This document shows positions 15,470-64,000 of a stretch of 64,000 nt of DNA, in pieces; within the stretch, counting starts at the first letter, position 1, and each line of letters starts with the position of its first letter. The DNA is from Pseudomonadales bacterium (lineage in GTDB: Bacteria > Pseudomonadota > Gammaproteobacteria > Pseudomonadales > Porticoccaceae). The translations under genes and the position numbers were made by a program. Location of the stretch: positions 61,695-125,694 of the forward strand of contig JACKOF010000002.1 of the NCBI GenBank assembly GCA_024234435.1. The letters are read 5' to 3'. The notes under the pieces were generated by a model. The model had not been told where the DNA came from, did no database searches, and worked only from the letters and a program-made list of their open reading frames with translations.

Positions 15470-15479
15470 GCGTGCAGAG

Positions 15480-16811: not shown

Positions 16812-16823
16812 GTACCGAACAGC

Positions 16824-20318: not shown

Positions 20319-20379
20319 CCGGCTATCGACGAAAACGCCCATTTGTCAACAAGTTACAACAGAATACTCATGTAAAGCA

Positions 20380-20408
20380 TTGACTTTTCAGCCAATAGCT
20401 TCAACAAT
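20380..20408 (+). promoter_or_regulatory. Candidate sigma-70 promoter for the pilin gene block
   Basis: TTGACT (20380-20385), 17-nt spacer, AACAAT (20403-20408). It lies in the only sizeable intergenic gap inside the msh locus, about 115 nt upstream of the mshA ATG. Confidence 0.3.
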
Positions 20409-20523
20409 AACGACAATTTCGTCAATTCCACAACGTGTTAGATATTATCGATTTTGTCAGTTACGGGATTATCAGCGAATAAGCGTTAAAACCAACCACA
20501 AAGCAAATAAAGGGAAGAAAAAC

Positions 20524-20922: not shown

Positions 20923-20940
20923 TGTAGCTCCTCTGAAACA

Positions 20941-22000: not shown

Positions 22001-22010
22001 GCTAATCACT

Positions 22011-22793: not shown

Positions 22794-23349
22794 CACGTTC
22801 TGTAATAGCTTAAACCGCCTTCTGGATCGCTTCACCGCTGTTCGCGATGACAACCTGCCCTCACTGTCATTGCGAGCCGAAGGCGTGGCAATCCAAAACC
22901 ACTCAAGCCAAAGGCGCTCTCTGCATCTACCCCAAAAGCAACAAGGCTTTCTGATGCCGCTGGCCATTTTTATTGTCGTGATCATGGGCTTCTTTATTAC
23001 CACTCTCTCCCGCACCACCAGCCAGACGGCAACCTCCACCACGCAGGAGGCGATTTCACTGCAGGCTTTTTACGCAGCAGAAAGTGGTGCGCAACTGGGC
23101 ATGGCCAACCTGTTTTACGACACACTGAATCCATTAACGGCTTCAGCGGTTACAGGCCGTTGCGATGCGATGGCATTAACACCCAGCTTTAGCATCACAG
23201 GGCTGCGAAACTGTTCAGCCAGCGTCAGCTGTGCAACCGACAGTTCCGTTCCCGGTAAAAGCTTCTATACCATTACCAGCGTTGGCCGGTGTGGAGGCAC
23301 TGACATTGGTTCAAACCGAACTGTTCAGGTTTCGGCAAAAATGGAATAA
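22783..23349 (+). CDS. mshP: MshP (PilX-like minor pilin-associated protein), N-terminal region encoded by a repeat element
   Basis: ATG at 22783 overlaps the mshO stop by 11 nt. Hydrophobic segment QQGFLMPLAIFIVVIMGFFITT. Position in the operon. Confidence 0.6.
   Translation: MFPDTFCNSLNRLLDRFTAVRDDNLPSLSLRAEGVAIQNHSSQRRSLHLPQKQQGFLMPLAIFIVVIMGFFITTLSRTTSQTATSTTQEAISLQAFYAAESGAQLGMANLFYDTLNPLTASAVTGRCDAMALTPSFSITGLRNCSASVSCATDSSVPGKSFYTITSVGRCGGTDIGSNRTVQVSAKME
22824..22894. repeat. 71-bp imperfect-palindromic repeat element, copy C
   Basis: Sequence runs GGATCGCTTCACCGCTGTTCGCGATGAC...GTCATTGCGAGCCGAAGGCGTGGCAATCC. Confidence 0.8.
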
Positions 23350-23355
23350 CAGCGA

Positions 23356-26300: not shown

Positions 26301-26655
26301 GACCACCAACGACTCCTGCAGTACACTGGCGTTTAGCGAAATTACCTATGCTACGAATAACCCGATTGCCAACCCACAGCCTGTAGCGGTGGGCAGCGGC
26401 ACCAGTAATGGCTCACTGAACGCAGCTGGTTCAGCTGCGGCAGTCACCTCCGGCACCTTCGGGCTGATTTTTTCTGCTCCCAATGACACAGGTCAATTCC
26501 CTGTTTCGGTCAACCTCACCAATTACCCCTGGCTGCGCTTTGACTGGAACCAGGACGGCGATTACAACAATGATACTGCCCTGCCTGACGCCACCATCAA
26601 CTTTGGTGCCTACCGTGGTCACGACCGGGTAATCTACTGGCGTGAGCGATTCTGA
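23356..26655 (+). CDS. mshQ: MshQ, large secreted MSHA-associated protein with duplicated N-terminal lectin-like domains
   Basis: Signal peptide (LLLLAATGLQAAPG). 1099 aa, last gene of the msh order. Two roughly 160-aa internal repeats. Confidence 0.8.
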   Translation: MCLRRYITALLLLAATGLQAAPGDILFQEQFNNTADLTADWTTDSEARVNAVTGNPTPSLSIEAGNGARSATSRPIDTQVPSASLSFWVRRGFDTQGGNCPSNQTCSEYPEGGENFQVQYLNSSNNWITLITYTGGGTSGEIFTYDEPLPADGLHAAFRLRFTHVGGNQGGWDLWHADDVLITETIDIAATCSTTSTIFYEAFNNNGDLNSDWNTDNGVRINSITFGAASPSVSIDGRSGLHGITSKSNRIDANVAAARLGFWVRRGFDTQNNGCPTNQNCSEDTDDNENLVVEYLNNANSWQPIITYEGGGTKGEILNYSALLPGDALYSGLRLRFLHTGGSGSTWDLWHIDDVLVEQCTGSAGPDHYSINNLATTAVSCEAINLTIEAHDASHNLTDALSATVTLTTSTGRGTWSGTGISDATPNDGTATLTFSSGADSMNVQLSHPDLGGNTSETININVSDGSITEISGNAIALDDPSTVISDSGFRFIEVAGATTTATIPSQVAGVLSSQNLFIEAIRTDLDTGSCTGVYPAGTTVNVDLAAECKNPQNCAGLQVAITNNGNTTSIATSNDNSGTGAAAYTGVNLLFASDSRAAFSLRYRDVGNISLHARDTVNLPGNVSDTLTGESNGFVVKPYTLMMILAESNDATPINNPGTTTALPGFLPAAASFRVVVESQDADGNRTPNYGNETIPETVSASFGSLIFPVGPGAANGTFSSGTFTATATPGQFESTTASWTEAGTFTLIADIGDSNYLGAGGVASPAESGNIGRFYPADFALSGEALDQWCEASGTKTGSFSYLSQPNLRLTYTLTARNRSGNPVLNYDNTDLNYLITSPDVPIGAINYHAENADNGINLNARVTVSPSAPIAWDNGVYRLTDVPGQLNRIAAPDGPFTETQFSLDVTDPDGAVLDIANRNQNPDTSGDCLTPANCTSAALGNPQVFRFGRTVIEDASGPESAPLPVIFGTEYWDGTNFITTTNDSCSTLAFSEITYATNNPIANPQPVAVGSGTSNGSLNAAGSAAAVTSGTFGLIFSAPNDTGQFPVSVNLTNYPWLRFDWNQDGDYNNDTALPDATINFGAYRGHDRVIYWRERF

Positions 26656-43213: not shown

Positions 43214-44821
43214 GTGGCAATCATGACAGAACTTCTCCACCAGCTTATCAGCAAACAGGCAAAAAAATCGCCTGAAGCCCGAGCCATGTTTTTTAAAGAC
43301 CAGCAATTCAATTATGCAGAGCTGGATCGTCAAATAACCCATGCCGCCGCAGGGTTGCGGTCACTGGGTATTTGCCCCAATGACCGGGTCGCCACTTATC
43401 TGCCCAAACTGCCTGAAAATGTTTTCAGTCTGTTTGGTGCTGCCGCCGCAGGCGGTGTTTTTGTGCCCGTAAATCCATTGCTCAAACCTGCTCAGGTTGC
43501 CTATATTCTTCAGGACTGCAACGTTAAAGTACTGATTACCTCGGCCCAGCGACTCGGCATTTTAGGCGACGTGCTGGACAGCTGCCCGGATCTGACAACC
43601 GTTATTGTTGTGGAAGACGAACGGCCTGCTACAGGGCAACAATCACACTATGAAACGCTTAACTGGACGTCTTTCACAACGACCGGCAGCGAACAGAACC
43701 ATCACACCCGCATCGATGCGGATATGGCTGCCATTCTTTATACCTCTGGCAGTACCGGCAACCCCAAAGGCGTTGTGCTCTCACACAAGAACATGGTCAC
43801 CGGCGCGCACAGCGTCGCCTCCTACCTGAACAACACTGCCGAAGACCGCTTGCTGGCCGCACTGCCCTTCAGCTTTGATTACGGCTTCAGTCAGATGACA
43901 ACGGCTTTTTCGGTAGGCGCTTCAGTCACGCTAATGGATTATCTGTTGCCAAGGGATGTGGTCAGGGCAATCGAAAAATACCAGATCACCGGCCTGGCTG
44001 CCGTACCACCACTCTGGAACCAGCTGGCGCAACTGGAATGGCCCCAAGCTGCTGCTGAAACTTTGCGTTACATCACCAATAGTGGCGGAGCCATGCCACA
44101 AGCAACGACCGCCAGATTGCGGAAAGCGCTACCAAAAACAAACGTGTTCCTGATGTACGGACTGACCGAGGCTTTTCGCTCCACGTTTCTGCCACCGGAA
44201 CAGATCGACATCCGCCCCGACTCCATGGGCAAGGCAATTCCCAATGCCGAAGTCATGGTGGTGCGCCCCGATGGCACGGAGTGTGACCCTCACGAACCAG
44301 GAGAACTGGTACACCGTGGCTCATTGGTAGCAATGGGTTACTGGGGCGACCAGGCGAAAACTGCCGAACGATTTAAGCCTTCCCCTGGCAGGCCAACAGA
44401 TATTCCCATTACTGAAATTGCCGTATGGTCCGGCGATCAGGTAAAGAAAGACGAGGAAGGCTTCCTCTACTTTATCAGTCGCATGGACGAAATGATCAAA
44501 ACCTCCGGCTACAGGGTCAGCCCGTCTGAAGTGGAAGAGGTTATTTATAACCTGAAAGCAATAAAAGAGGTGGCTGCGCTGGGTTTACCCCACCCCACTC
44601 TCGGGCAGGCTATTCTGATCGTTGCCAGCCCAACAGACAGTAACGTTGAGAGTTTGGAAAAAACTATTCTTACACACTGTAAAAAAGAACTACCCGGCTT
44701 TATGGTGCCTCAGGCCGTTATTGTTGAAAGCGAATTACCCCATAATCAAAATGGCAAAATAGACCGAAAAATGCTTTCCATTCAACACCAAAACATTTTT
44801 CAGGATAACGGACAGGAGTAA
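43214..44821 (+). CDS. Acyl-CoA/acyl-carrier ligase (AMP-forming), exosortase-A-associated type
   Basis: AMP-binding motifs ILYTSGSTGNPKGV, YGLTE and SGDQVKKDEEGFLYFISRMDEMIKTSGYRV. The start is GTG 43214 or ATG 43223. Confidence 0.9.
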   Translation: MAIMTELLHQLISKQAKKSPEARAMFFKDQQFNYAELDRQITHAAAGLRSLGICPNDRVATYLPKLPENVFSLFGAAAAGGVFVPVNPLLKPAQVAYILQDCNVKVLITSAQRLGILGDVLDSCPDLTTVIVVEDERPATGQQSHYETLNWTSFTTTGSEQNHHTRIDADMAAILYTSGSTGNPKGVVLSHKNMVTGAHSVASYLNNTAEDRLLAALPFSFDYGFSQMTTAFSVGASVTLMDYLLPRDVVRAIEKYQITGLAAVPPLWNQLAQLEWPQAAAETLRYITNSGGAMPQATTARLRKALPKTNVFLMYGLTEAFRSTFLPPEQIDIRPDSMGKAIPNAEVMVVRPDGTECDPHEPGELVHRGSLVAMGYWGDQAKTAERFKPSPGRPTDIPITEIAVWSGDQVKKDEEGFLYFISRMDEMIKTSGYRVSPSEVEEVIYNLKAIKEVAALGLPHPTLGQAILIVASPTDSNVESLEKTILTHCKKELPGFMVPQAVIVESELPHNQNGKIDRKMLSIQHQNIFQDNGQE

Positions 44822-44825
44822 ACCG

Positions 44826-46061
44826 GTGAGCAAACCTCAACCCCAGCATACGGATATGGCGCAATTTCCCGTCGTCAACAACTGTCTTCAAATAGGCGGC
44901 ATGCCGGTCACGGACCTGGCTGCGAAAGTAGGCCAGACACCCTTCTATGCTTACGACCGTCAATTGATGACAGACCGTGTTGCCGAACTTCGACGCATTT
45001 TGCCCTCAGGAATCAGCCTTCACTACGCCATGAAAGCCAACCCCATGCCCGATGTGGTTAACCATTTTTCAACGATTACAGATGGGCTGGATGTCGCTTC
45101 GGGGGGCGAACTAAAAGTCGCGTTAGCCACAGGCATCAACCCCAAAGAGATCAGCTTCGCCGGCCCGGGAAAATCAAATGAAGAGCTCGAAGCCGCTGCC
45201 AGAGCGGGCATTATCATCAACCTCGAATCGGAAGGTGAAATGGAGCGGCTGTCCATAATTGCCAGCACCCACGACCTCAACCCTGTCGTATCTGTGCGTG
45301 TAAACCCGGACTTTGAGCTCAAAACCTCCGGCATGAAAATGGCGGGCGGCCCGAAACCATTTGGTGTTGATGCCGAGCGCGTACCCGAAATGCTCAAACG
45401 CATCGGTGAACTACCATTTGAGTTTGTCGGTTTTCATATTTTTAGTGGTTCTCAGAACCTCAAACCCGACGCCATTATCGAAGCGCAAACAAAAACGTTT
45501 CAACTGGCAATACAGCTCGCAGAACATGCGCCTTCACCCGTTAGATGGCTAAATATCGGCGGAGGTTTCGGCATCCCTTACTTCCCCGGCGAACAGCGTC
45601 TGGACTTGCAACCCATCGCCGACAACCTTGAAATACTGCTGAAAGAATACCAACCGAAACTGCCCGAAGCAGAAATAGTGATTGAACTGGGCCGTTACCT
45701 CATTGGCGAGGCAGGTGTGTACGTGTGCGAAATTATCGATGTTAAGGAATCCCGTGGAGAAACCTTCGCCATTGCCAATGGTGGCTTACACCACCACCTG
45801 TCACTATCCGGCAATTTTGGCCAAGTCATTCGCAAAAACTACCCGGTCTGCATTGGCAATAATGTGGTCAGCGAAGACACAGCGGCAGTCAATATTGTCG
45901 GGCCACTGTGTACACCACTGGATATTCTGGCCAACAAATATGAACTGCCACTTTTGAAAACCGGAGACCTGGTGGTGGTGTTTCAATCCGGCGCCTATGG
46001 CTTCACCGCCAGCCCCAGAGATTTTCTGAGCCACCCGGAAGCCCGGCAAATACTGGTTTAA
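44826..46061 (+). CDS. PLP-dependent decarboxylase (Orn/DAP/Arg decarboxylase fold type III), exosortase-A-associated type
   Basis: PLP-Lys context HYAMKANP. GGGFGIPY. GPLCTPLD. Begins 4 nt after the ligase stop. Confidence 0.9.
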   Translation: MSKPQPQHTDMAQFPVVNNCLQIGGMPVTDLAAKVGQTPFYAYDRQLMTDRVAELRRILPSGISLHYAMKANPMPDVVNHFSTITDGLDVASGGELKVALATGINPKEISFAGPGKSNEELEAAARAGIIINLESEGEMERLSIIASTHDLNPVVSVRVNPDFELKTSGMKMAGGPKPFGVDAERVPEMLKRIGELPFEFVGFHIFSGSQNLKPDAIIEAQTKTFQLAIQLAEHAPSPVRWLNIGGGFGIPYFPGEQRLDLQPIADNLEILLKEYQPKLPEAEIVIELGRYLIGEAGVYVCEIIDVKESRGETFAIANGGLHHHLSLSGNFGQVIRKNYPVCIGNNVVSEDTAAVNIVGPLCTPLDILANKYELPLLKTGDLVVVFQSGAYGFTASPRDFLSHPEARQILV

Positions 46062-46173
46062 GGGTCATTTTTTGCGACCGACCGGCAGATGATTTTCACC
46101 CTGAAATGTATATACTGGCCTCTGCATAAATAACCCCTGAAAACATTTACTGAATTTTAAATTGGCAAACAGC

Positions 46174-46407
46174 ATGGATACACTGGAGCGCCTCGCGCTT
46201 GTTTTTGAAGACACCTTTACCGACGATTCCTACCAGTTTTCTGAAGAGACCACTCAGGAGGATATTGAGGAGTGGGACAGCCTCAATCAGGTTCGACTAC
46301 TGATGGCTATCGAGCAGGAGTTCGGCATCAAGTTTGCTCTTGATGAGATGGAAAAGCTCACAGGTGTTGCCGCTATTTCCGCTGTCATTTCAGAAAAACT
46401 GAATTGA
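46174..46407 (+). CDS. Acyl carrier protein 1
   Basis: 78 aa, acidic, with phosphopantetheine-site context EEWDSLNQVRLL. ATG at 46174 (the track TTG is at 46162). Confidence 0.8.
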   Translation: MDTLERLALVFEDTFTDDSYQFSEETTQEDIEEWDSLNQVRLLMAIEQEFGIKFALDEMEKLTGVAAISAVISEKLN

Positions 46408-46454
46408 CCGCTCCTCTTGTGATTATTCGCCTCGATAGTTGCTGAGAATCCCGC

Positions 46455-48356
46455 ATGAATGACCTGCCCTGGCTACTGCCTGCTCCTGAAAATTTTAACG
46501 AGCAATGCGCGCAAATGCTCTCTGCTGATAACAGCCTGGACCGGGCCTGCCAACTGGCAGCCACATCGCTTTCATTGAACCAGTGCAACCGACTGATCAA
46601 AGCTCTGGACAAAAGCCATGATCAACAACAGGCCACCAAATCGCCACTGACACACTTCAAGCTCGGTATCGTCAGCAATGCCACGTTTAACCTGTTTGTA
46701 CCGGCGCTACGAGCCTCAGCGCTTCGCCACGGTATTTTACTTGATGTTGTGTTAGCCGATTTTGACCAGATTATGCAAGAAGCATTAAACCCTGAATCCT
46801 TGATCAATAGTGCCGATGTCGATGCCATATTGATCGCACTGGACCATCGGGGCTACCCTTTCGCTACTGACACCCTTGCCAGCACTACACCCGATACCAC
46901 CGCAGCAGATGCCGTCGAACACCTGAACCAACTGCGTTCGGGGTTTGCACGGCACAGTGGTGCTCCCTGCATAGTGCAAACGCTGGCATGCCCACCCTTT
47001 CCGTTACTGGGAGGGCTTGATACGCAACTGGCAGGGCTGTTGCAAAAAGAAATCCGGGATTTCAACAGCCAACTTTGCGATATTGTCGCCGACAGCACGG
47101 ACATCATGCTCGATATAGCTTCACTTGCCAGCCGCGTCGGAACCGGTCAATGGTTTGATGAGCGGCAATGGTTAATGTCTCGCATTGCCATGGCTAACGA
47201 ATTCATCCCCCTATACTGTGATCATGTTGCCCGCACCCTGGCTGCCATGCGCGGCAAAAGCAAAAAATGCCTTATTCTCGATCTGGATAACACACTTTGG
47301 GGTGGCGTGATTGGTGACGATGGCATGGATGGCATACATATCGGCCAGGGTCATCCTGTGGGAGAAGCTCATCAGGCCATACAGCGGTATGCAAAAGAGC
47401 TGAAAAATCACGGCATTATTCTTGCGATTTGCTCAAAAAATGAAGAAGCCATCGCCCTGCAACCATTCCGGGAACATCCCGATATGGTGTTGCAAGAAGA
47501 GGACATCGCTGTATTCGTTGCCAACTGGAATGACAAAGCCAGCAATATTCAGCATATTGCCCGTACACTCAATATTGGCACCGATGCACTGGTGTTTCTG
47601 GATGATAACCCAATGGAACGCGATATTGTCCGGACGGTATTACCCGAAGTTTCAGTTCCCGAATTACCCGATGATGCAGCGTTGATTCCACGCACACTGG
47701 CTGCGGCAGGCTACTTTGATTTAATCAGCTTTACCACTGACGATGCCCAGCGAAGCGAGCAGTACCGCGCCAATGCTATACGTCAGAAGGCTATGGAGTC
47801 TTCCGGGAATATCGACGACTACCTGGCCAGCCTGGATATGGCCATTGAGTTCAAAGCCTTTGATGCCAGCGGACGCAAACGCATCACACAGCTGATCAAC
47901 AAAACCAATCAGTTTAACCTGACAACCCGACGCTATACCGAAGCAGAAGTGGAACAGTTTGAAGTAAACCCGCAATACATCACCCGGCAGGTTCGACTTT
48001 CCGACAAATTTGGTGACAACGGCATGATCAGTGTGCTGATCGCCAAGAAAGAGCAGGACTGTCTGATTGTTGACACTTGGCTCATGAGTTGCCGGGTAAT
48101 TAAACGCCGCGTTGAAGATGCACTTTGTGACGAACTGGTCGCCGCAGCAAAAGCTGAGGGCATCACAACCATCCGTGGTGTCTACCTTCCTACGTCCAAA
48201 AACCCCCTGGTAAAAGAACACTACCAAAATCTGGGTTTTTCTCTCATTGACAGCACTGATGGCACCGACACATGGGAACTGAACATCAACGATTATCAAG
48301 CCAAAACACCCCCCATGTCCGTCACAAGACAATCACCTGAAATGGTCGGGGCCTGA
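46455..48356 (+). CDS. FkbH-like protein (HAD-IIIC phosphatase domain plus FkbH/GNAT-like C-terminal domain)
   Basis: HAD motif I LILDLDNTLWGG, motif II ICSKN, motif IV FLDDNP. Also INKTNQFNLTTRRY and WLMSCRVIKRRVE blocks. Confidence 0.85.
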   Translation: MNDLPWLLPAPENFNEQCAQMLSADNSLDRACQLAATSLSLNQCNRLIKALDKSHDQQQATKSPLTHFKLGIVSNATFNLFVPALRASALRHGILLDVVLADFDQIMQEALNPESLINSADVDAILIALDHRGYPFATDTLASTTPDTTAADAVEHLNQLRSGFARHSGAPCIVQTLACPPFPLLGGLDTQLAGLLQKEIRDFNSQLCDIVADSTDIMLDIASLASRVGTGQWFDERQWLMSRIAMANEFIPLYCDHVARTLAAMRGKSKKCLILDLDNTLWGGVIGDDGMDGIHIGQGHPVGEAHQAIQRYAKELKNHGIILAICSKNEEAIALQPFREHPDMVLQEEDIAVFVANWNDKASNIQHIARTLNIGTDALVFLDDNPMERDIVRTVLPEVSVPELPDDAALIPRTLAAAGYFDLISFTTDDAQRSEQYRANAIRQKAMESSGNIDDYLASLDMAIEFKAFDASGRKRITQLINKTNQFNLTTRRYTEAEVEQFEVNPQYITRQVRLSDKFGDNGMISVLIAKKEQDCLIVDTWLMSCRVIKRRVEDALCDELVAAAKAEGITTIRGVYLPTSKNPLVKEHYQNLGFSLIDSTDGTDTWELNINDYQAKTPPMSVTRQSPEMVGA

Positions 48357-48357
48357 C

Positions 48358-49812
48358 GTGCCAGAAAAAAAGCGGATTGGTGCGTTCTCGATATCACAGG
48401 CGTTTACCCATGCATTTGCAGAACTGTCTGGCGACAGTAACCCTCTGCATGTGGACCCAATTGCCGCCCGTCGTTATCAATTTGGCACCACCGTTGTGCA
48501 TGGTATCTGTGCTGCATTAAAAGCGCTGGATGTTTTTTTCGGTGCCCAGCCTGCCAGTGGCAACACCCTAGCACTGGCATCGATCAAAATTCAGTTCAAC
48601 AAGCCGCTGCATCACGATGATGATGTGGAAGTGTTTCACAGCATCAATGAAAAATCGCATCGGCTGGAACTGAGCAAAAACGGCAAACGCGCGCAGATCA
48701 TCAGCTTTGAACTGCAATCCATCCATGACAGCGGCAAAGCGACGGTCAAAAGCCTTTCGGAAAACAGCTCTCCGATTTCAATCAACAACTACACTTTTGT
48801 GGAGGCCGCCACTGCCGAAGGCAAGATTCCCTTTAACTGGAATCAACGCCTCGCCGAAGAGCTGTTTCCCAATGCAACAAATGTTTTGCCTGCAAGCCAG
48901 ATCGCTACGCTGCTGGCAACCACCGTTATTGTGGGTATGAAGTGTCCGGGGCTGAACTCTGTTTACGGCGGCTTGAATCTATCATTCAATGCAACGTTAA
49001 TTGCCCAGCCCGGCCCACTGAGCTACCGGGTCAGCGACAGCGACGAGCGTTTTAACCGATTGTTGATTGATACCGAAAACGACATAGCCTCCGGTCAGAT
49101 TGAAACCTTCTACCGCGCACCACCGGTCGTTCAACCTTCTTTCAAGCAAATAAAACCCTTGCTGACCGGCAACGAATTTGCTGCCCAACGTGCACTGATT
49201 ATTGGCGGCTCTCGGGGCCTGGGAGAGATCACTGCAAAAATACTGGCGGCAGGCGGCGCTAAAACTATTATCACCTACGCCAGCGGCCAACAGGATGCCG
49301 AACGTGTCGCCAATGATATTAACGCAGGCAGCGGCTACTGTCAGACCGCCCAATACAATATTTTGAAGCCTGACGTCCACATCGCCCACAGCTTCACCGA
49401 AGAGCCCATCAGCCACATCTATTACCTGGCATCACCGGTTATCAGCAAAAGCGATCACCTGCTGTGGGACGACAGCCTGTTTAACCACTATTACCGCTAT
49501 TACGTTACTGGTCTCAAAGATCTGTTATCCCCTTTTGTAGAAAGTGCCGACTACAAAAAATCGGCGCTGAATATTTTTATCCCTTCCACCGTTTTTCTCT
49601 CGGAACCCATTAAGGGGTTTGGAGAGTATTGTGCTGCTAAAGCCGCCGCCGAAACTTTTGCACAACAGATTCCGCTTGCTGCTCCCAGGTGGTCCGCGTT
49701 CAGACCAAGATTGCCGAGGCTACAAACGGATCAGACCAGTGGCGCCATGTCTGCGGACCCGATGGAAGCCACCACCGTATTACTCAACACTTTATTGTCG
49801 TTGTCATTATGA
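48358..49812 (+). CDS. Bifunctional MaoC-like (hotdog) dehydratase / short-chain dehydrogenase-reductase
   Basis: N-terminus FAELSGDSNPLHVDP...TVVHG (MaoC). C-terminus ALIIGGSRGLGEITA Rossmann loop (SDR). GTG start 1 nt after the FkbH stop. Confidence 0.8.
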   Translation: MPEKKRIGAFSISQAFTHAFAELSGDSNPLHVDPIAARRYQFGTTVVHGICAALKALDVFFGAQPASGNTLALASIKIQFNKPLHHDDDVEVFHSINEKSHRLELSKNGKRAQIISFELQSIHDSGKATVKSLSENSSPISINNYTFVEAATAEGKIPFNWNQRLAEELFPNATNVLPASQIATLLATTVIVGMKCPGLNSVYGGLNLSFNATLIAQPGPLSYRVSDSDERFNRLLIDTENDIASGQIETFYRAPPVVQPSFKQIKPLLTGNEFAAQRALIIGGSRGLGEITAKILAAGGAKTIITYASGQQDAERVANDINAGSGYCQTAQYNILKPDVHIAHSFTEEPISHIYYLASPVISKSDHLLWDDSLFNHYYRYYVTGLKDLLSPFVESADYKKSALNIFIPSTVFLSEPIKGFGEYCAAKAAAETFAQQIPLAAPRWSAFRPRLPRLQTDQTSGAMSADPMEATTVLLNTLLSLSL

Positions 49813-50681
49813 ATCAGCCTGCAGAAAAAACTGTCAGCCCGAACCTTCTTCCCATTGGCGAAGAAAATATCCCCGATGTCGCAGTTTTTTTAAACAGACA
49901 TATGAACAGCACATTCTCTGTCGAAGCGTGGGCGAACGGATTGCGCGCCTGCTGGCTGGAAGACGCACCCAATCATGGCTTTATGCTGCAAGCAGAAGGT
50001 CAGATTGTCGGCGTACTGTGCGCCATCTATTCCCTGCAAAATATTGAAGGCCGCACAGAAAAATTTTGCAATCCGCACACTTGGTGTGTGCTGGAACCGT
50101 ATCGCAGTAAAAGCGTACCCCTGGTGCTCTCGGTTATCCGGCAGGAGGGCTACCACTTCACCATGTTCTCACCCAACAAGGAAGGCGAGCAGATATTCAG
50201 CTACCTGGGGTTCAAACCCCTCGATCGCTCGAAGCTGGTATTGCCACACACCCCCAGCCCAAAGCGTTTCAAAAAAGATGAAATTTTCACCCACGACCTG
50301 ACTCAGTATCTGCCACCAACACTCGCCAAATGCGCCGAAGATCACCAGCCTTATCCCTGGGTGCACAGTTTTGCGTTCCGCTCGGGTGACGAATATTGCC
50401 TGGTTTTTTACAAACCGGGCAAATACAAAAAAATGCCCTGCGCCAACATCACTTACATCAGCAATAAATCTCTGTTCAGCCGTTGCTGGGGCGCTGTAAA
50501 AAATCACCTGTTGTTCAAGAAAGGGCTTTTGGTTACCCGTATTGACGCGCGGTTTCTTGAAAACCCACCCAGGCTATCGTTTAAAACACTTGATGGGCCA
50601 GCCCGTTTTTACCTTAGCAACACCGCCGGGCCTGCAGACATTGAATACATTTATAGTGAACTTACGGTAATGAATCTTTAA
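49809..50681 (+). CDS. Putative acyltransferase-like protein (possibly GNAT fold), function unknown
   Basis: ATGA overlap with the upstream gene. Weak GNAT-like region (GFMLQAEGQIVGVLCAIYS). The call is low-confidence. Confidence 0.4.
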   Translation: MNQPAEKTVSPNLLPIGEENIPDVAVFLNRHMNSTFSVEAWANGLRACWLEDAPNHGFMLQAEGQIVGVLCAIYSLQNIEGRTEKFCNPHTWCVLEPYRSKSVPLVLSVIRQEGYHFTMFSPNKEGEQIFSYLGFKPLDRSKLVLPHTPSPKRFKKDEIFTHDLTQYLPPTLAKCAEDHQPYPWVHSFAFRSGDEYCLVFYKPGKYKKMPCANITYISNKSLFSRCWGAVKNHLLFKKGLLVTRIDARFLENPPRLSFKTLDGPARFYLSNTAGPADIEYIYSELTVMNL

Positions 50682-50722: not shown

Positions 50723-50971
50723 ATGAACTTGCTGGAAGATATAACTCAGATTGTTGCTGAAGTTTTAATGCTTGACGACCAGGCAGACGGTTTTGATGAA
50801 AACACCGCATTGCTCGGCGCAATCCCCGAATTCGACTCCGTGGCTGTTGTCTCACTGGTCACCGCACTGGAAGACGAGTTTGGCTGCACGTTTGACGACG
50901 ACGAACTCAATGCCGACGTGTTCGCCACTATCGGTAGCCTAACCAAAACTGTCGAACAAAAACTCGCCTGA
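50723..50971 (+). CDS. Acyl carrier protein 2
   Basis: 82 aa, acidic, with Ser-site context IPEFDSVAVVSLV. Confidence 0.8.
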   Translation: MNLLEDITQIVAEVLMLDDQADGFDENTALLGAIPEFDSVAVVSLVTALEDEFGCTFDDDELNADVFATIGSLTKTVEQKLA

Positions 50972-51810
50972 TGAACCAACCGTTCTTCCTCAAACCCGGC
51001 TTTATTGAAGGTGAAAAGGGCCCTCTCTTTGCCATACACCATGAACCGGTTATAAAGGCAGACCGCAATGAGTGCGTGGTCGTTCTTTCCGCATTTGCCG
51101 AAGAAATGAACCGTTGCCGCTATATGCAAAACATGCTTGCACAGGCTCTTAACAAACAAGGTTATGGCCTGATTTGCGTAGACCCCTATGGCACCGGCGA
51201 CAGCGCTGGTGAATTTGCCGACGCTGACTGGAACGGCTGGGTCTCTGACAGTATCACCGCAATCCACTATGCCGCAGAACTGGGCTACAACAAAATTTCG
51301 CTACTCGGCATCCGCCTGGGCGCGTTACTGGCGCTGGCGGCAATGCCTTCGGTAAATAATGTCTCCCACCTGCTTCTGTGGCAGCCGGTATACAACGGCA
51401 AGGCGACTCTGACCCAGTTTCTGCGGCTCAAAATTGCCGCAGCCATGGCACGAGGTGAAGACGGCATTACTACCGCTCAACTGGAAGACGAAATCAATCA
51501 GGGTAGCAGCATTCAGATTGCCGGCTATGATGTCTCCCCGGGCCTTTTCAAGGGTATTCAGCAAGCACATATCAACCACCATTTCGATGCAATTCCAGCG
51601 TCTGTCTCTTGGTTTACCGTATTGCCCAGTGCTGACAAAAAAGCGCCACGAGCAGACCTGCAGACCATAGAAAAATGGCGCAGCAAAGGTGTCCAGATCA
51701 ACCACCAGAATATTGTTGGCCCCGCTTTTTGGCAGGCACATGAACGCACCCTGGCGCCCGATCTTGTTCCTGCTACACTCGCCGCAGTAATCGGAGGTGA
51801 AGCGCCATGA
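50971..51810 (+). CDS. Alpha/beta-hydrolase-fold protein, exosortase-A-associated hydrolase type, with Arg at the nucleophile position
   Basis: TGATG overlap with ACP2. DPYGTGDSAG block. The nucleophile elbow reads LLGIRLGALL instead of GxSxG. Confidence 0.7.
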   Translation: MNQPFFLKPGFIEGEKGPLFAIHHEPVIKADRNECVVVLSAFAEEMNRCRYMQNMLAQALNKQGYGLICVDPYGTGDSAGEFADADWNGWVSDSITAIHYAAELGYNKISLLGIRLGALLALAAMPSVNNVSHLLLWQPVYNGKATLTQFLRLKIAAAMARGEDGITTAQLEDEINQGSSIQIAGYDVSPGLFKGIQQAHINHHFDAIPASVSWFTVLPSADKKAPRADLQTIEKWRSKGVQINHQNIVGPAFWQAHERTLAPDLVPATLAAVIGGEAP

Positions 51811-52664
51811 ACGAAAAGGCGGTTGTCTTCAGCTGCGGTAACGACCCGCTGATAGGCATCATTCACCAACCGGATGAACCCGTAAACACAGGGGTTATTA
51901 TTATCGTTGCCGGTGGTCCGCAATACCGGGTTGGTGCCCACCGGCAATTCGTCACCCTTGGCCGCCAGCTGGCCAGCAAGGGGATTCCCACCCTTCGGTT
52001 TGACCATCGCGGAACCGGCGACAGCAGCGGCGATTACCGCGGCTTTGTCGACATGGACAAGGATATTCAGGCCGCCATTGACACACTATTAAAAGAATAT
52101 CCGCATCTGGAAAAAATTGCCTTATGGGGCGAGTGTGAATCCGCTTCTGCCGCCGCTTTCTATGCCTATAATGACGACAGGGTCAGCGGCCTTTTTCTGG
52201 TCAACCCCTGGATACGAACCGAAGCAGGTCAGGCGAAGACCTACCTCAAACACTACTACCGCAAGCGCTTGCGGGATCCAAAATTCTGGAAAAAATTACG
52301 CTCCGGTGAGTTCTCGTTTTTGAAATCTGCAGAAGCTTATTTGAAGCTGCACTCTGAAGCCAGAAAACAAAAACAGTCCGCGGAAAAACCACAGGAAAAC
52401 CTGAAAGAGTTACCTCTTCCCGAGCGCCTGACCAAAAGCCTGCACCTTTTTGCAGGCAACACCTATATTCTCACCAGCGGCAACGACTATATTGCCCAGG
52501 AATTCAAAGACTTTATGGCCACCTCTGATTTATGGAAAAAATCAGGCATCAATGAAAAATCCACCTTTCACGATATGGCCGATGCTGACCACACCTTCTC
52601 GCGCACAGAGTGGCGGGTAGAGCTCTTTCAGCACACAGAAACCTGGCTATTGGCTAGCCAATAA
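51807..52664 (+). CDS. Alpha/beta-hydrolase-fold protein, exosortase-A-associated hydrolase type, with Cys at the nucleophile position
   Basis: ATGA overlap. DHRGTGDSSG block. Nucleophile elbow LWGECESASAA. His context DADHTF. Confidence 0.7.
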   Translation: MNEKAVVFSCGNDPLIGIIHQPDEPVNTGVIIIVAGGPQYRVGAHRQFVTLGRQLASKGIPTLRFDHRGTGDSSGDYRGFVDMDKDIQAAIDTLLKEYPHLEKIALWGECESASAAAFYAYNDDRVSGLFLVNPWIRTEAGQAKTYLKHYYRKRLRDPKFWKKLRSGEFSFLKSAEAYLKLHSEARKQKQSAEKPQENLKELPLPERLTKSLHLFAGNTYILTSGNDYIAQEFKDFMATSDLWKKSGINEKSTFHDMADADHTFSRTEWRVELFQHTETWLLASQ

Positions 52665-58778: not shown

Positions 58779-60632
58779 ATGACAAATCTGACTAACACCA
58801 GACTATTAAAGTCGCACTACTTTGCGGGCTGGTCCGCTAGCGACCCTATCAGACACACGCCTGAAAACGTTATTCTGGCAATGCAGAACACTGAAAACAG
58901 CTCACTGCCAACAGAAACTATCGCCGCCAACACTTACGGGTGTATCACTACCGGGCATTTATTCAGCCCGGACAACACCGTGACTGCGGCGATTACCGGT
59001 AATCCTCGCTGGCCATCGCATTCACTGCAACAGTTAGCGTCGGATAAAAATAACGCTCACGCACTTGCTGCCGCTTACCGGCAGCATGGTCCTGAATTGT
59101 TCGAGCAACTGCAAGGTGATTTTTCATTAATTATTATTGATAGCAGTAATGATTTGTTTCTATCGGCAACGGACCGTATGGGGCAACACCCCGTTTATTA
59201 CGCCACTCTCAATAACGGTGTGGTGTTCGGCTCATCAGTGTCTGCCGTTCTGGCTCATCCGGATGTCAAACGGGAAATCCAGCCCCAAGGTATCTACGAT
59301 TACGTTTACTTTCATATGGTACCCAGCCCCCACTCCATTTTTGCGGGCGTAAACAAACTCCCCGCTGGCCATTTGCTCCAGTATCAAAATGGGCGGGCGG
59401 AAGTTAAAAACTATTGGCAACCCGATTTTAAAGAGAGCTGCTCTACCAGCTTCCCGGATATGGCTAAACAGCTAAAGACCGAGTTAAAAAATGCCGTCGC
59501 CCGCAATATAAGAAGCGGCGCATCTGTTGGCGCGTTTCTCAGCGGAGGACTCGACAGTTCAAGCGTCACGGGCATGCTTGCTGAAGCCTGCGAGCGAGAA
59601 GCACACGCCTATTCCATTGGTTTTTCAGCCAAGGGCTATGACGAAATGGAATACGCGCGCATTACAGCCAAACATTTTGGCGTAAAACTTCACGAATATT
59701 ATGTGACACCGAAGGATGTAGTAGATGCACTACCGCTGGTCGCATCCAGTTACGACGAACCCTTTGGCAACTCATCTGCCCTGCCCGCTTATTTCTGTGC
59801 CAAAGTCGCTGCCGAAAACGGTGTACAACAATTGCTGGCAGGTGATGGTGGTGACGAAATTTTTGCAGGTAACGAGCGTTACATTAAACAGGGCATTTTC
59901 GAAAATTATGGGAAAATCCCTCTTGCTTTGAGGCGTGGGCTTATAGAGCCTGTCACCCGAAAACTGCCACAGGGGTTCCCGCTGGCCAGCAAAGCCAACA
60001 GTTATCTTGACCAGGCAAACACGCCCCTGCCCGACCGCTTGCAAAGCTACAATTTTTTGCACCGGCATCAACCGAATGAAATATTTACTGACGACTTCCT
60101 GAGACAGGTAGATGTGTCGGCTCCGATAGCCCTGCAAAGGCATACTTACCAGCTGCCGGAAAAAGCCGAAACTCTTAACCGGATGCTCTACCTGGACTGG
60201 CAATACACCCTGGCCGACAACGACCTGCGCAAAGTCAGCCATATGTGTGCCCTGGCCGGTATCGATGTCAGTTACCCCATGCTTGATGACAATCTGATCG
60301 CTTTTTCCTGCTCAATTCCCAGCGCCTGGAAAATCAAGGGTAAGGACTTGCGCCATTTCTACAAACAGGCGCTAACCGGCTGGCTACCCAACGAAACCAT
60401 TCACAAGAAGAAGCAGGGTTTCGGGCTGCCTTTCGGAGTCTGGATGGAAACACATAAACCGCTGCAGGAAATGGCTTACGACAGCCTGTTGCGACTAAAA
60501 CGCAGGGGTTATTTGAGGCCGGAGTTCATTGACCACGCCATTGAGCTGCACCGCAATCATCACGCAGCATACTACGGCGAGTTAGTCTGGATTTTGACCG
60601 TGCTGGAACTCTGGATGGACAAACATGTTTAA
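58779..60632 (+). CDS. Asparagine synthetase B-family amidotransferase lacking the canonical N-terminal Met-Cys
   Basis: PP-loop AFLSGGLDSS. AsnB C-terminal blocks (LAGDGGDEIFAGNERY, KKKQGFGLPF). The glutaminase-domain region is present, but the N-terminus is MTNLTNTR... Confidence 0.85.
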   Translation: MTNLTNTRLLKSHYFAGWSASDPIRHTPENVILAMQNTENSSLPTETIAANTYGCITTGHLFSPDNTVTAAITGNPRWPSHSLQQLASDKNNAHALAAAYRQHGPELFEQLQGDFSLIIIDSSNDLFLSATDRMGQHPVYYATLNNGVVFGSSVSAVLAHPDVKREIQPQGIYDYVYFHMVPSPHSIFAGVNKLPAGHLLQYQNGRAEVKNYWQPDFKESCSTSFPDMAKQLKTELKNAVARNIRSGASVGAFLSGGLDSSSVTGMLAEACEREAHAYSIGFSAKGYDEMEYARITAKHFGVKLHEYYVTPKDVVDALPLVASSYDEPFGNSSALPAYFCAKVAAENGVQQLLAGDGGDEIFAGNERYIKQGIFENYGKIPLALRRGLIEPVTRKLPQGFPLASKANSYLDQANTPLPDRLQSYNFLHRHQPNEIFTDDFLRQVDVSAPIALQRHTYQLPEKAETLNRMLYLDWQYTLADNDLRKVSHMCALAGIDVSYPMLDDNLIAFSCSIPSAWKIKGKDLRHFYKQALTGWLPNETIHKKKQGFGLPFGVWMETHKPLQEMAYDSLLRLKRRGYLRPEFIDHAIELHRNHHAAYYGELVWILTVLELWMDKHV

Positions 60633-60699
60633 GGGTCACTAACGTTTTATTACACGGAGAAAACAGCACTGGCGTACACGGTATCGTTCGCAACATATT

Positions 60700-60770
60700 G
60701 GATTACTTCCTCGCTTCTTCTCACAATGCCGGAACGCTGGCTGTCATTGCGCGCAGTAGCACAGCAATCC
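60700..60770. repeat. 71-bp imperfect-palindromic repeat element, diverged copy D
   Basis: Sequence runs GGATTACTTC...GTCATTGCGCGCAGTAGCACAGCAATCC. Same length and termini as copies A-C. Located in a convergent intergenic region. Confidence 0.65.
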
Positions 60771-60825
60771 AATAAAATTGAATCCTGCTTAAACCAGCCC
60801 TTATGCAGCCATAATACCTTTACCC

Positions 60826-61950
60826 TCATAAAACTTTTTCACCAAATACCATATCTGTTCCACAATTTTCTGAAAAAATGGAATCCAGCATCAAATCACC
60901 GAGCTCTTTTCTGTAGTGCGCAGGCTCCCAGAACCACTTTAATGCAACGCCTTTCTCGCCCTGCGCTGGTAGAGGTTCATGAATATAAGGCGAATCAGCA
61001 GAAAAATTCCACAGCGTAACCCGGCTGCTTTGTATACCCTCAACAATGCCAGTGATTTCCCCCAACCAGTCGGGGTAGAGATCCAACAACCTGTTTTTCT
61101 CAAGAAGATTCCAGAACCTTTCGTGCAGCGGATTAATAAAAAGTACAACTTCGATATCCCGACTGCTCAAAACGGATAAGAATGCCTTCAAGTGCTCAAA
61201 ATCCTCTGACCTCTGGCCATTTTCATAATAAAGGCTCCAGCGCCTTTGATATTTCTCCTGCAACAACTGCTCTTTCTGAAGAAACAGTGCTCGCACACCT
61301 TCAATTCTGGTGCTGCTGGCAAAGTCGTAAGCCGGGTTAAAACCGGCTTCGGTTCTGTCCGTTGCCGGACTTCCCTGCGCGACCACCGTTTTTATTGAAC
61401 TGACCAGAGCGTTCAAGGAAAAGAAGGCGGAATAATAGTCTTTCAGCTGACTCAGACGATACGCACTGTTGATATCGCCGTTAGCCTGATACTGGAGGTT
61501 TGCCACTGGCGATATCCCGCTATTCAACGGAGCGCTGGAACCTTCGGCAACCAGAAAATCCGGAAAGTCCAGACTCATTAAGACCCTGTTAACCGGCTTT
61601 TGATACACCAGATTCAGTGCCGCTGCGGACTGGTACCCAATGCTCGCGCCCGGTATTCCGAGATTATAGGCTTTCCGCCCCCCCGCAGAGAGACAGGCAT
61701 GGTGGGGGTCAACTCCCATCTCGACACGTGAATTGCCAACAATCAGTGTCTGAAAGTCAGCCCTTAACGGCTGATAGGCTTTTGCCAATCTGACCCGGCT
61801 ATTGATGTGAACTTTATAATGATTAAACCCCTCGATGCGTTTTGCACCGGAAACAGCATAAGGGTCAACAAAATAATTGAACACAAAAACCAGACAGCTC
61901 GCAAAAACCAGTGTGAGCAGAAAAGTAACTGTGTATTTTTTTGTTGTCAT
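60826..61950 (-). CDS. Membrane-anchored accessory protein of the MBOAT acyltransferase (DltD/AlgJ-like role inferred)
   Basis: N-terminal TM anchor. IVGNSRVEMG block resembles the SGNH/DltD block I. Lies 9 nt downstream of the MBOAT gene on the same strand. Confidence 0.45.
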   Translation of the reverse strand: MTTKKYTVTFLLTLVFASCLVFVFNYFVDPYAVSGAKRIEGFNHYKVHINSRVRLAKAYQPLRADFQTLIVGNSRVEMGVDPHHACLSAGGRKAYNLGIPGASIGYQSAAALNLVYQKPVNRVLMSLDFPDFLVAEGSSAPLNSGISPVANLQYQANGDINSAYRLSQLKDYYSAFFSLNALVSSIKTVVAQGSPATDRTEAGFNPAYDFASSTRIEGVRALFLQKEQLLQEKYQRRWSLYYENGQRSEDFEHLKAFLSVLSSRDIEVVLFINPLHERFWNLLEKNRLLDLYPDWLGEITGIVEGIQSSRVTLWNFSADSPYIHEPLPAQGEKGVALKWFWEPAHYRKELGDLMLDSIFSENCGTDMVFGEKVL

Positions 61951-61959
61951 CGGCCTGCA

Positions 61960-63519
61960 TCAAAATTGGAAGTAAAGAAACTCGGAAACCTGGCTAAGTG
62001 TTAACACACCAAACAGAAACATCAGCGCAGTCACGACAGCCCACTTGCCCGAAAGGGTCCACTCACAGACACCTTTGGATTTTCTGAAGCCTTTAAAAGC
62101 CGCATCGTTTTCATATAAAACAGGTTCCGCTCTGTGAAAAATCTGTGCCAGATTAGGGGCAAAAAAGGCCAACAGCGCCGCCGGAACAATCCACGCAAAA
62201 TTCTCAACAAACCGTGAACCGCTGGTATAACTGACCCCTACGCCCGCCTGTTGCAACAGCTCGCCAACGTCGCCGAGCCTGGCAACGATCCCGGCCGGAA
62301 TTTGCACACCATTGGCACCGGACATTGCCAGCAAAATCGAATTGGCCTGCTCCAGCGTTGGAGCGCGAAAGAATACCCACGACACAACTACTGCCAGAAA
62401 AGTCAGCAGCCAGCAACTGGCGTTATAGACAGACGACTCACGCCAGTCGAGCCGCGCTACTGTCAGCAACTTGCTCCAGGCATGGTTAATCATCAGGTAC
62501 GTGCCATGCAGACAACCCCAGACAACAAAGGTCCAACCAGCACCGTGCCACAACCCGCCAAGCAGCATAGTCAAAAACAGATTGATATAGCGGCGTGATT
62601 TGCCTCGTCTATTGCCACCCAGGGAGATATAGAGATAATCACGCAAAAACCGCGACAGGGTAATATGCCAGCGCCGCCAAAAATCGACAATGCTGTTGGC
62701 TTTGTAGGGTGAGAAAAAATTAAGCGGCAGGGTTATGCCAAACATTCGCGCGCAACCAATAGCCATATCCGAATAGCCGGAGAAGTCAAAATAGAGCTGA
62801 AAGGTATACGCCAGTGTGCTGCCCCAGGCAGTAAAAAAATCCAGTTGCCCTGCTGCCGGACTGTCATATACCGGCCCCACATAAGCCGATAGACTGTCAG
62901 CCAGAACCGTTTTTTTGAACAGGCCAATACTGAAAATACTGATCCCTACGGCAATATTTTTTGTCCACGACGGCAACGCATCCCGACGCATGAACTGTGG
63001 CAGCATTTCGCTGTGATGAACAATTGGCCCGGCAATCAACTGGGGGAAAAAACAGACAAACAAAGAGTAGTGCAACAAATTATACTCTCGCGCCTTACCC
63101 TCCCATACATCCACCAGATATGAAATCTGTTGAAAGGTAAAAAATGAAATTGCCAGCGGCAAAAATATTTTTTCCAGTTGCAGACTGGTACTGAATACAG
63201 CGTTGATATTATCTACAAAAAAATTGGCATATTTGAAATAACCCAGCAATGCCAGATTAATCCCAACACCGCAAATCATTACCAGCTTTGAAGGCTGCCC
63301 CGAAAAACGCGAGATCAGTTTGCCAACGTAATAATTGAAAAAAATGGAAAAAAGAATAAGAAATAAATAGGCCGGATTCCAGTAACCATAGAAAAACAGA
63401 GAGGCCGACACCAGCACGGCAAAGCCGATCTCTGTTTTCCGCCTGCGCAGGCATAACACGTACAGCAGCAACGTGCAGGGAAGAAAAGCAAAAATAAACT
63501 CGAAAGAGTTAAAGAGCAT
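61960..63519 (-). CDS. MBOAT-family membrane O-acyltransferase (AlgI/DltB-like)
   Basis: Starts MLFNSFEFIFAFLP. Conserved blocks FWRRWHITLSRFLRDYLYISLGGNRRG and GGLWHGAGWTFVVWGCLHG. Confidence 0.9.
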   Translation of the reverse strand: MLFNSFEFIFAFLPCTLLLYVLCLRRRKTEIGFAVLVSASLFFYGYWNPAYLFLILFSIFFNYYVGKLISRFSGQPSKLVMICGVGINLALLGYFKYANFFVDNINAVFSTSLQLEKIFLPLAISFFTFQQISYLVDVWEGKAREYNLLHYSLFVCFFPQLIAGPIVHHSEMLPQFMRRDALPSWTKNIAVGISIFSIGLFKKTVLADSLSAYVGPVYDSPAAGQLDFFTAWGSTLAYTFQLYFDFSGYSDMAIGCARMFGITLPLNFFSPYKANSIVDFWRRWHITLSRFLRDYLYISLGGNRRGKSRRYINLFLTMLLGGLWHGAGWTFVVWGCLHGTYLMINHAWSKLLTVARLDWRESSVYNASCWLLTFLAVVVSWVFFRAPTLEQANSILLAMSGANGVQIPAGIVARLGDVGELLQQAGVGVSYTSGSRFVENFAWIVPAALLAFFAPNLAQIFHRAEPVLYENDAAFKGFRKSKGVCEWTLSGKWAVVTALMFLFGVLTLSQVSEFLYFQF

Positions 63520-63573
63520 CCATTACCTCTGGCCCAGATATTATCGCAAAGAATATTTTTTCAATAACATCAG

Positions 63574-64000
63574 TTATACATCCCGACGATTGTGGCCCTC
63601 GACCGTTACACGCCATTGCAAGTGATCCGGGCGCTTAAATTTTCGATAGGTTTTCCGCACCAGGCCTCCCAGAAATAATCGATCCACAGACATCAGAAAT
63701 TGTTTTAACTGGTAACGCTTGTAATACTTTTTCAGGCGCCCATAGACATCATCATGATGCGTTTCTTTTGCCACAGCCATCAGATCTTCCACGGTGCTTG
63801 CCAAACCTTCATCATAAGGTTTCAGCACTTCCAGCCCCCGCAACCCCTTTATTCTGGGCAGTGAAGCAGAATGGCCGCCAAGCATCTGAATGGCAAGCGC
63901 AGTCCTGACACATTTTGGGCAGGTTCCGCAGTTTTCGTGAATGCTGCGCCAGCAAACCTGCAGGTTATCGGCAACCTGTTGATTGCGAAGTATCTCCCTC
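63574..64000 (-). CDS. Hypothetical protein, N-terminus outside the window (partial). Contains a CGTCPKC cysteine motif.
   Basis: The minus-strand frame stays open upstream of the track Met (63885) to the window edge. Hand translation gives REILRNQQVADNLQVCWRSIHENCGTCPKCVRTALAIQM... Confidence 0.5.
   Translation of the reverse strand, partial: REILRNQQVADNLQVCWRSIHENCGTCPKCVRTALAIQMLGGHSASLPRIKGLRGLEVLKPYDEGLASTVEDLMAVAKETHHDDVYGRLKKYYKRYQLKQFLMSVDRLFLGGLVRKTYRKFKRPDHLQWRVTVEGHNRRDV

Follow-up and report, generated by a model that had tools for sequence, protein, structure and literature searches.

An MBOAT-SGNH gene pair in a Porticoccaceae exosortase A island: a probable carrier-independent O-acyltransferase separate from the nearby ligase and carrier-protein cassette

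Do the acyltransferase, ligase and carrier-protein genes found together in one Porticoccaceae genome form a single acylation system, or two? The genes lie in a stretch of 64,000 nucleotides from a Pseudomonadales bacterium (GenBank assembly GCA_024234435.1, contig JACKOF010000002.1, positions 61,695 to 125,694 of the forward strand), referred to here as the window. Near its end the window encodes an MBOAT-family membrane acyltransferase and a membrane-anchored partner and, 8-17 kb away on the opposite strand, a ligase, a pyridoxal phosphate (PLP) decarboxylase and two acyl carrier proteins (ACP1 and ACP2). The initial annotation had located all of these genes, as profile matches confirm, and took them for a four-part system resembling D-alanylation (Dlt), in which the MBOAT passes a carrier-bound acyl group across the membrane onto exopolysaccharide (EPS). 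It is probable that the pair is instead a self-contained, carrier-independent MBOAT-SGNH O-acyltransferase for the EPS of an exosortase A (XrtA) island, and that the ligase and carrier-protein genes are a separate tailoring module of the same island.

The two genes of the pair, and the residues on which the argument turns, are as follows:

61960-63519, minus strand: MBOAT-family membrane acyltransferase of 519 residues with PatA/AlgI-type architecture (PF03062, 8e-37)
62545-62547, minus strand: codon of His325, the predicted catalytic histidine, conserved in all MBOATs, in GGLWHGAGW (aligned to the histidine of the DltB WHG motif; codon checked)
61984-62199, minus strand: two extra C-terminal hydrophobic helices, residues ~441-461 and ~492-512, beyond the DltB-aligned part (hydropathy scan)
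61963-61980, minus strand: C-terminal hexapeptide FLYFQF-COOH, an FXYXXF acyl-shuttle motif with Tyr516 (translation and codons)
60826-61950, minus strand: SGNH-fold partner of 374 residues, DltD/DUF1574-like, a predicted periplasmic acyltransferase (AlphaFold2 model and Foldseek)
61867-61923, minus strand: N-terminal transmembrane anchor of the partner, residues ~10-28, preceded by KK (hydropathy scan; helix 3-28 in the AlphaFold2 model)
61729-61731, minus strand: codon of Ser74, the predicted nucleophile of the partner, in VGNSR (residues 71-75; 29-sequence alignment, codon checked)
60916-60927, minus strand: E342-P-A-H345 in WFWEPAHY, the predicted acid and histidine of the triad (SGNH block V, DxxH-like; alignment, codons checked)

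The MBOAT is the sole member of its family in the host genome. Its best solved relative in a sequence search of the PDB is DltB (8jem/6bug, 3e-32, over residues 121-359). The DltB equivalog model TIGR04091 aligns with residues 3-384 of 519 only and scores 178.7 bits against a cut-off of 375; a DltB identity was rejected on this score and on the fused shuttle. The ~135 residues past the DltB-aligned part contain two hydrophobic helices and terminate in FLYFQF-COOH, a hexapeptide that is identical in 81 of the 82 orthologous MBOATs of other genomes.

An FXYXXF “acyl shuttle” carried on two extra transmembrane helices is present in PatA, AlgI, WssH and PatA1 and absent from DltB, for which the shuttle is supplied by the microprotein DltX and the donor is the carrier DltC (Anderson et al., J Biol Chem 2025, PMC12148441). 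PatA auto-acetylates the tyrosine of the motif from acetyl-CoA, the role of the catalytic histidine is assigned from His315 of PatA, and the systems with a fused motif are argued to lack a carrier protein because acyl-CoA is used (PMC12148441). By its fused C-terminal FXYXXF on two extra helices the window MBOAT groups with this acyl-CoA-using class, and by its sequence the protein is of the PatA/AlgI/WssH type and not of the DltB type.

The partner gene does adjoin the MBOAT gene, as had been proposed, its start lying 9 nt past the MBOAT stop. Its product has no match in the PDB by sequence, even at E = 10, and structure prediction was therefore used. In the PDB, Foldseek ranks DltD first for the AlphaFold2 model (pLDDT 93.7), with the entries 7dxm/3bma/6pfx at a probability of 0.97-0.99, a TM-score of 0.36-0.40 and E ~3e-3, followed by PatB, PAF acetylhydrolase and GDSL esterases; the top 50 matches include no structure of AlgX or AlgJ. 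The only Pfam match is to DUF1574 (PF07611), over residues 69-322, with E = 6e-5 and 23 bits, under the gathering threshold of 29.1 bits. DUF1574 is an SGNH-clan family with function and structure both unassigned (PMC9487903). Among 29 members of the partner family, 16 match DUF1574 at E <= 0.1 (best match 9e-6), two match DltD and none matches AlgX. The Pfam DltD model (PF04914) has no match in the window partner and is matched by two of the 29 homologues at 0.007. An AlgX/AlgJ identity (PF16822) was rejected, with no profile match in the 29 members and no fold match.

These comparisons uphold the resemblance to SGNH/DltD noted for the partner, for which DltD is best by fold, DUF1574 is sub-threshold and AlgX gives nothing, and the single transmembrane anchor is likewise recovered as one N-terminal hydrophobic helix by hydropathy and in the AlphaFold2 model. 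Judged by sequence and predicted fold, the partner is a DltD/DUF1574-like SGNH protein whose family is related to DUF1574 but distinct from it. This family comprises 2,799 clusters at E <= 1e-3 in a library clustered at 50% identity, and its members, where the sources name them, are hypothetical proteins. In the 29-sequence alignment Ser74 is nearly invariant and G72, R75, E77, E342 and H345 are invariant; the conserved SGNH-like set also includes G101 and N205 (in GFNP). The homologue cluster P0065, with 10 member sequences on 6 contigs, reads VGNARSE, with an alanine at the position of Ser74 and the other conserved residues kept. The positive-inside rule predicts an N-in/C-out orientation for the partner, and a periplasmic location is expected.

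The neighbourhood of the pair was compared in 84 loci, 80 fetched from other species and four obtained by exact look-up. In ~79 of them the partner has the MBOAT 1.6 kb upstream, an adjacency far beyond chance. By profile search, 29 of the 84 loci have a carrier protein no more than 10 kb from the pair and the other 55 have none at this distance; at no locus does a carrier protein lie between the MBOAT and the partner.

Whole genomes were examined for 48 of the ~82 that carry the pair, 40 of these 48 having been chosen for the lack of a cassette gene nearby. XrtA scores over its cut-off in 39 of the 48, as against 57 of 401 genomes (14%) sampled from the host’s order (Fisher p = 2e-21; this and the other co-occurrence statistics ignore phylogeny). 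The ligase or the decarboxylase is present in 28 of the 48 pair genomes; the ligase, the decarboxylase and a further cassette marker, hydrolase 1, are all missing in 19, and the cassette-free pair genomes include a Thiobacillus-like clade (6/6) and an Alteromonas isolate. In the 401-genome sample XrtA occurs in 57, the ligase in 38, both in 22 and an orthologue of the partner in six, and 32 of the 38 ligase genomes are without the pair. In genus g3 the cassette is found in all three genomes and the pair in one. More distant pairs, with MBOATs that end in FLYF(Q/R)F, occur in near-complete genomes that have no match to the ligase or to hydrolase 1; their MBOATs are 49-51% and their partners 24-30% identical, and the one such genome checked for XrtA, G070, has no match over the cut-off.

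In the MBOAT tree, copies from cassette-linked and cassette-free genomes are interspersed, with at least 8 and at least 11 forced changes. The MBOATs stay 51-67% identical, and this sequence conservation argues for one common acyl donor. The pair is a conserved two-gene module that is strongly tied to XrtA genomes and not to the cassette. The proposal that it completes a four-part Dlt-like system is not borne out, given the fused shuttle, the 19 cassette-free pair genomes and the 32 pair-free ligase genomes.

The window sits in an XrtA/PEP-CTERM EPS island. Such islands function in floc and biofilm formation in environmental bacteria. The window itself contains PrsT, a THxN PEP-CTERM protein and the exosortase-associated acyltransferase TIGR03694, and the MBOAT and its partner are the final two genes of a long minus-strand run that continues past the window end. 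This run includes an XrtA chain-length determinant, a tyrosine kinase, an outer-membrane protein, WecB, FemAB, stp1, XrtA-EpsI and stp2, as well as a TIGR03108 amidotransferase, stp3, a PaaK-like ligase, PEP_O_lig_1, deacetylases and ATP-grasp proteins. A literature search found no paper that joins an exosortase with an MBOAT. Three genes of the surroundings are referred to below:

58779-60632, plus strand: AsnB-family amidotransferase paralogue of 617 residues (PF00733, 1e-79)
63574-64752, minus strand: protein of 392 residues directly upstream of the MBOAT (weak Pfam hints only, DUF6395 and MC6)
79542-81128 in window numbering, past the window end: XrtA-EpsI (337 bits)

Gaps of 9 nt and 54 nt are what suggests a transcription unit for the MBOAT and its partner; a promoter and terminator scan of positions 60400-64000 gave nothing over shuffled expectation. 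The 392-residue protein was considered as a third component and rejected, no orthologue being found beside the pair in the 84 public-collection loci. Its orthologue in G432, a relative of the same family, is 46% identical and is encoded on the other strand, ~1.3 kb past the partner gene.

The commonest next neighbour of the pair is an orthologue of the AsnB-like gene, found within 10 kb at 35 of the 84 loci, 15 of them outside Halieaceae. The AsnB-like protein of the window scores 319 bits on TIGR03108, under the cut-off of 817. It begins MTNLTNTRLL, with no Cys after the initiator Met, and this lack of an N-terminal Cys makes glutaminase activity improbable. The protein may act in tailoring by forming amides, and its gene may be one that moves together with the pair. 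The gene is present also at the cassette-free Thiobacillus-like loci.

Two further arrangements were seen in passing. Locus L092 (G082:C13:36001-51526) has two divergently arranged MBOATs, both ending in FLYFQF, flanked by three partner paralogues; its genome, of 2.3 Mb and from the host’s order, has no match to the ligase and none to hydrolase 1. Elsewhere in the window, positions 10339-26655 on the plus strand hold a cluster resembling an MSHA-type pilus or type II secretion system, with a PilM-like protein, an MshL secretin, GspF, several prepilins and a PilB/GspE with an MshE-type c-di-GMP-binding N-terminus. The same cluster includes a protein resembling the XrtA/PEP-CTERM-associated ATPase TIGR03015 (226 bits, under the cut-off of 324) and a protein of 1099 residues with no family match.

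The other candidate module comprises the following genes:

43214-44821, plus strand: Ligase_PEP_1 (TIGR03098, 795 bits, over cut-off)
44826-46061, plus strand: PLP decarboxylase dCO2ase_PEP1 (TIGR03099, 601 bits, over cut-off)
46162-46407, plus strand: carrier protein ACP1 (PF00550)
46455-48356, plus strand: FkbH-domain protein (TIGR01686, 305 bits)
48358-49812, plus strand: MaoC dehydratase with a short-chain dehydrogenase/reductase (SDR) domain (PF01575 and PF00106)
49689-50681, plus strand: protein of 330 residues with no family assignment
50723-50971, plus strand: carrier protein ACP2 (PF00550, 1.7e-8)
50971-51810, plus strand: hydrolase 2 (TIGR03101, 252 bits, over cut-off)
51807-52664, plus strand: hydrolase 1 (TIGR03100, 312 bits, over cut-off)

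With four curated TIGRFAM cut-offs passed (TIGR03098, TIGR03099, TIGR03101 and TIGR03100) in a genome that has XrtA, the ligase, decarboxylase, carrier protein and two hydrolases are recognised by sequence as an already known, functionally uncharacterised XrtA-associated cassette. In the window a block of ACP1, the FkbH protein, the MaoC-SDR protein and the 330-residue protein (46162-50681) is interposed between the decarboxylase and ACP2. The relative G432 has no such block, its ACP2 orthologue coming straight after the decarboxylase, and the uninterrupted order ligase-decarboxylase-ACP-hydrolase 2-hydrolase 1 is seen in G432/L089. At locus L020 the extended set, from ACP1 to a sulfotransferase-like gene, adjoins the MBOAT, and the ligase of that genome is ~66 kb off. 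Halioglobus japonicus (G041, locus L004) has, on a single contig, two ligase_PEP_1 paralogues over the cut-off (C51:66870-68408 and C51:144574-146133) and two hydrolase gene pairs around its MBOAT pair.

Both carrier proteins keep the phosphopantetheine serine, in DS(L/V). A DltC identity was rejected for them, ACP2 scoring 20.6 bits and ACP1 17.4 bits on NF003464 against a cut-off of 68, and generic ACP models outscore the DltC model on both. It is more likely that the ACP-bound product of the cassette is handled by the cassette’s own two alpha/beta-hydrolase-fold proteins. The four-part claim is weakened further by this assignment, which makes the ligase and ACP genes part of a separately conserved XrtA cassette with candidate transferases of its own.

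The strongest alternative is a Dlt-like coupling of the two modules, in which an acyl group derived from an amino acid or from FkbH would be built by the cassette on ACP2 or ACP1, taken from the carrier by the MBOAT, as D-Ala is by DltB from DltC, and transferred to EPS by the partner. We consider this unlikely, and several of the observations that speak for it weigh against the carrier-independent reading. The pair and cassette genes are within 10 kb of each other at ~31 of the 84 loci, in several unrelated lineages (Halieaceae, Sedimenticola, Azoarcus, Thauera and Colwellia) and in differing gene orders. ACP or hydrolase genes near the pair, at ~26-31 loci, come mostly from one Halieaceae clade; 55 of the 84 loci have no ACP within 10 kb and none has one between the MBOAT and the partner, where dltC lies. 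G432 has a co-directional run on a single strand, in the order ligase-decarboxylase-ACP-hydrolase 2-hydrolase 1-AsnB-MBOAT-partner, but the MBOAT there is preceded by a gap of 254 nt, whereas the cassette genes overlap or abut. An ACP1 orthologue stands directly beside the MBOAT in L020, and in L058 an ACP gene comes 1.5 kb after that of the partner; in the window the modules are on opposite strands.

The distribution across genomes also has two sides. All six pair genomes of the host’s order carry both XrtA and the ligase, and among XrtA-positive genomes the pair occurs in 6 of 22 with the ligase and in 0 of 35 without it (p = 0.002, phylogeny-uncorrected). Many of the cassette-negative genomes are metagenome-assembled, with completeness not established, and some calls of absence may be false. 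Opposed to these points are the 19 of 48 pair genomes without all three cassette markers tested, the 32 of 38 ligase genomes without the pair, genus g3 with the cassette in 3/3 genomes and the pair in 1/3, and the lack of a separate clade for the cassette-linked copies in the MBOAT tree. The co-occurrence of the MBOAT with the ligase and ACP genes, which the initial annotation had put forward as a check, is of a mixed kind: the modules are mostly independent across genomes, they are recurrent neighbours, and every pair genome of the host’s order also has the cassette.

The closest solved relatives of the partner are DltD, not AlgX or PatB, and to our knowledge DltD is the sole SGNH partner recognised in a carrier-protein pathway. 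CoA and carrier proteins share the phosphopantetheine arm, so that a switch of donor would be chemically small, and a fused shuttle taken alone is compatible with a carrier-protein donor. Set against this, a fused FXYXXF marks the acyl-CoA class and is unlike DltB (PMC12148441), and ACP2 is far under the DltC cut-off. It also counts against the carrier-independent reading that its donor (acyl-CoA, acetyl), its acceptor (XrtA EPS) and its topology are predicted and that every chemical step is drawn by analogy with PatA/PatB. The coupled reading is retained at its low probability because the two modules recurrently neighbour each other, a proximity that is partly explained by the position of both at the variable edge of XrtA islands.

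A narrower form of coupling, also unlikely, would confine it to islands of the Porticoccaceae/Halieaceae type, where the fused-shuttle MBOAT would have been recruited for an ACP-bound decarboxylated amino-acyl or FkbH-derived hydroxy-acyl group, to be placed onto EPS. If true, the pair would include the first MBOAT to depend on a carrier protein without being of the DltB type, and would provide an output route for the long-uncharacterised XrtA cassette.

It is likewise improbable, and a little more so, that the pair is a carrier-independent O-acyltransferase directed at another target, such as the glycans of PEP-CTERM proteins, lipopolysaccharide or capsule sugars, or peptidoglycan. In Magnetospira the pair lies among housekeeping genes, in genus g52 it is ~2 Mb from the XrtA/ligase locus, nine of the 48 pair genomes have no XrtA over the cut-off, and related pairs are present in near-complete genomes, of which the one checked for XrtA (G070) has no match over the cut-off. 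Yet XrtA is found in 39 of the 48 pair genomes against a background of 14%, and the pair lies, here and in many relatives, within an XrtA island near genes for PEP_O_lig_1, a PaaK-like ligase, glycosyltransferases and flippases; the genes beside the pair showed neither an Ape-type esterase nor another marker of peptidoglycan O-acetylation. Finally, that the partner is an acyl-trimming hydrolase (esterase) or inactive, with its place beside the MBOAT reflecting regulation of the acylation level, is very improbable, for although SGNH folds are mostly esterases and P0065 has Ala at Ser74, the SGNH-type residues are otherwise conserved and the near-universal pairing with a shuttle MBOAT fits all characterised MBOAT-SGNH transferase pairs (PMC12148441, PMC9487903).

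For the carrier-independent O-acyltransferase the following route is proposed. The donor would be a cytoplasmic acyl-CoA, in the simplest case acetyl-CoA, from which the MBOAT would accept an acyl group that is most likely acetyl. With His325 as catalyst, this group would pass through the membrane tunnel and be attached to Tyr516 in the protein’s own FLYFQF shuttle at the periplasmic face. From the shuttle it would go to Ser74 in the anchored DltD-like SGNH partner, which would then esterify hydroxyls of the XrtA-associated exopolysaccharide. We infer the acyl-CoA donor and the polysaccharide acceptor from the architecture of the pair and from its occurrence without a dedicated carrier system. 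Of the acyl relay onto EPS that had been suggested for this locus, transmembrane transfer to an extracytoplasmic polymer is still expected, while a carrier-bound donor supplied by the ligase and ACPs is not supported.

The steps of this route are drawn from homology with PatA/PatB and Dlt. In predicted mechanism and in MBOAT architecture the pair is of the kind of the known MBOAT-SGNH O-acetyltransferase pairs, namely PatA/PatB, which acts on Gram-negative peptidoglycan, AlgI/AlgJ-AlgX on alginate, WssH/WssI on cellulose, and PatA1/PatB1 on the secondary cell wall polysaccharide of Bacillus. The window MBOAT has, as these do, the catalytic histidine and two C-terminal helices with FXYXXF. The gene for an extracytoplasmic SGNH-fold partner is adjacent, the locus is a polysaccharide locus and there is no DltX microprotein, again as in those systems. 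At ~520 residues the window MBOAT is also similar in length to AlgI. Unlike the SGNH proteins of these systems, the window partner is outside the AlgX, PatB (DUF459) and DHHW families, its closest relatives being DltD by fold and DUF1574 by sequence. The predicted acceptor, an XrtA/PEP-CTERM-associated EPS, is different as well.

The Dlt system (DltA/C/B/X/D, D-alanylation of teichoic acid) resembles the window pair in having an MBOAT with an N-terminally anchored SGNH partner, for which the nearest structures are DltD, and tyrosine-shuttle chemistry would be expected in both; an adenylating ligase and carrier proteins are present in the island of the pair. The window MBOAT differs in failing the DltB model and in having a fused shuttle and no DltX. 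The ligase belongs to TIGR03098 and is acyl-CoA-ligase-like, ACP2 fails the DltC model, and the operon that holds the ligase and ACPs is a different one, on the opposite strand, whose genes occur independently of the pair across genomes. Since neither the DltB score, nor a separate DltX, nor the DltC score, nor co-inheritance with a carrier and ligase is found, the pair falls, on sequence grounds, outside the Dlt pathway. With the known XrtA cassette the window shares the genes at 43214-46061 and 50723-52664, in an island with PrsT, THxN PEP-CTERM, FemAB, stp1-3, the amidotransferase and PEP_O_lig_1; the window copy differs in its interruption by the block of ACP1, FkbH, MaoC-SDR and the 330-residue protein, and the MBOAT and partner are not part of the cassette.

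What is new here is modest, an XrtA-linked and uncharacterised SGNH partner family that is paired with a fused-shuttle MBOAT. The apparent four-part system resolves, on the carrier-independent reading, into two independent tailoring modules of XrtA/PEP-CTERM EPS islands. A DUF1574/DltD-like family of hypothetical proteins (~2,800 clusters at 50% identity) gains a proposed role that can be tested, as the periplasmic acyl-acceptor/transferase half of an MBOAT pair. That a DltD-like partner goes here with a PatA-type MBOAT argues against inferring a carrier-protein donor from the fold of the partner alone. The tyrosine-shuttle mechanism established recently for PatA/PatB and Dlt would extend to another family of SGNH partners and to XrtA-linked polymers.

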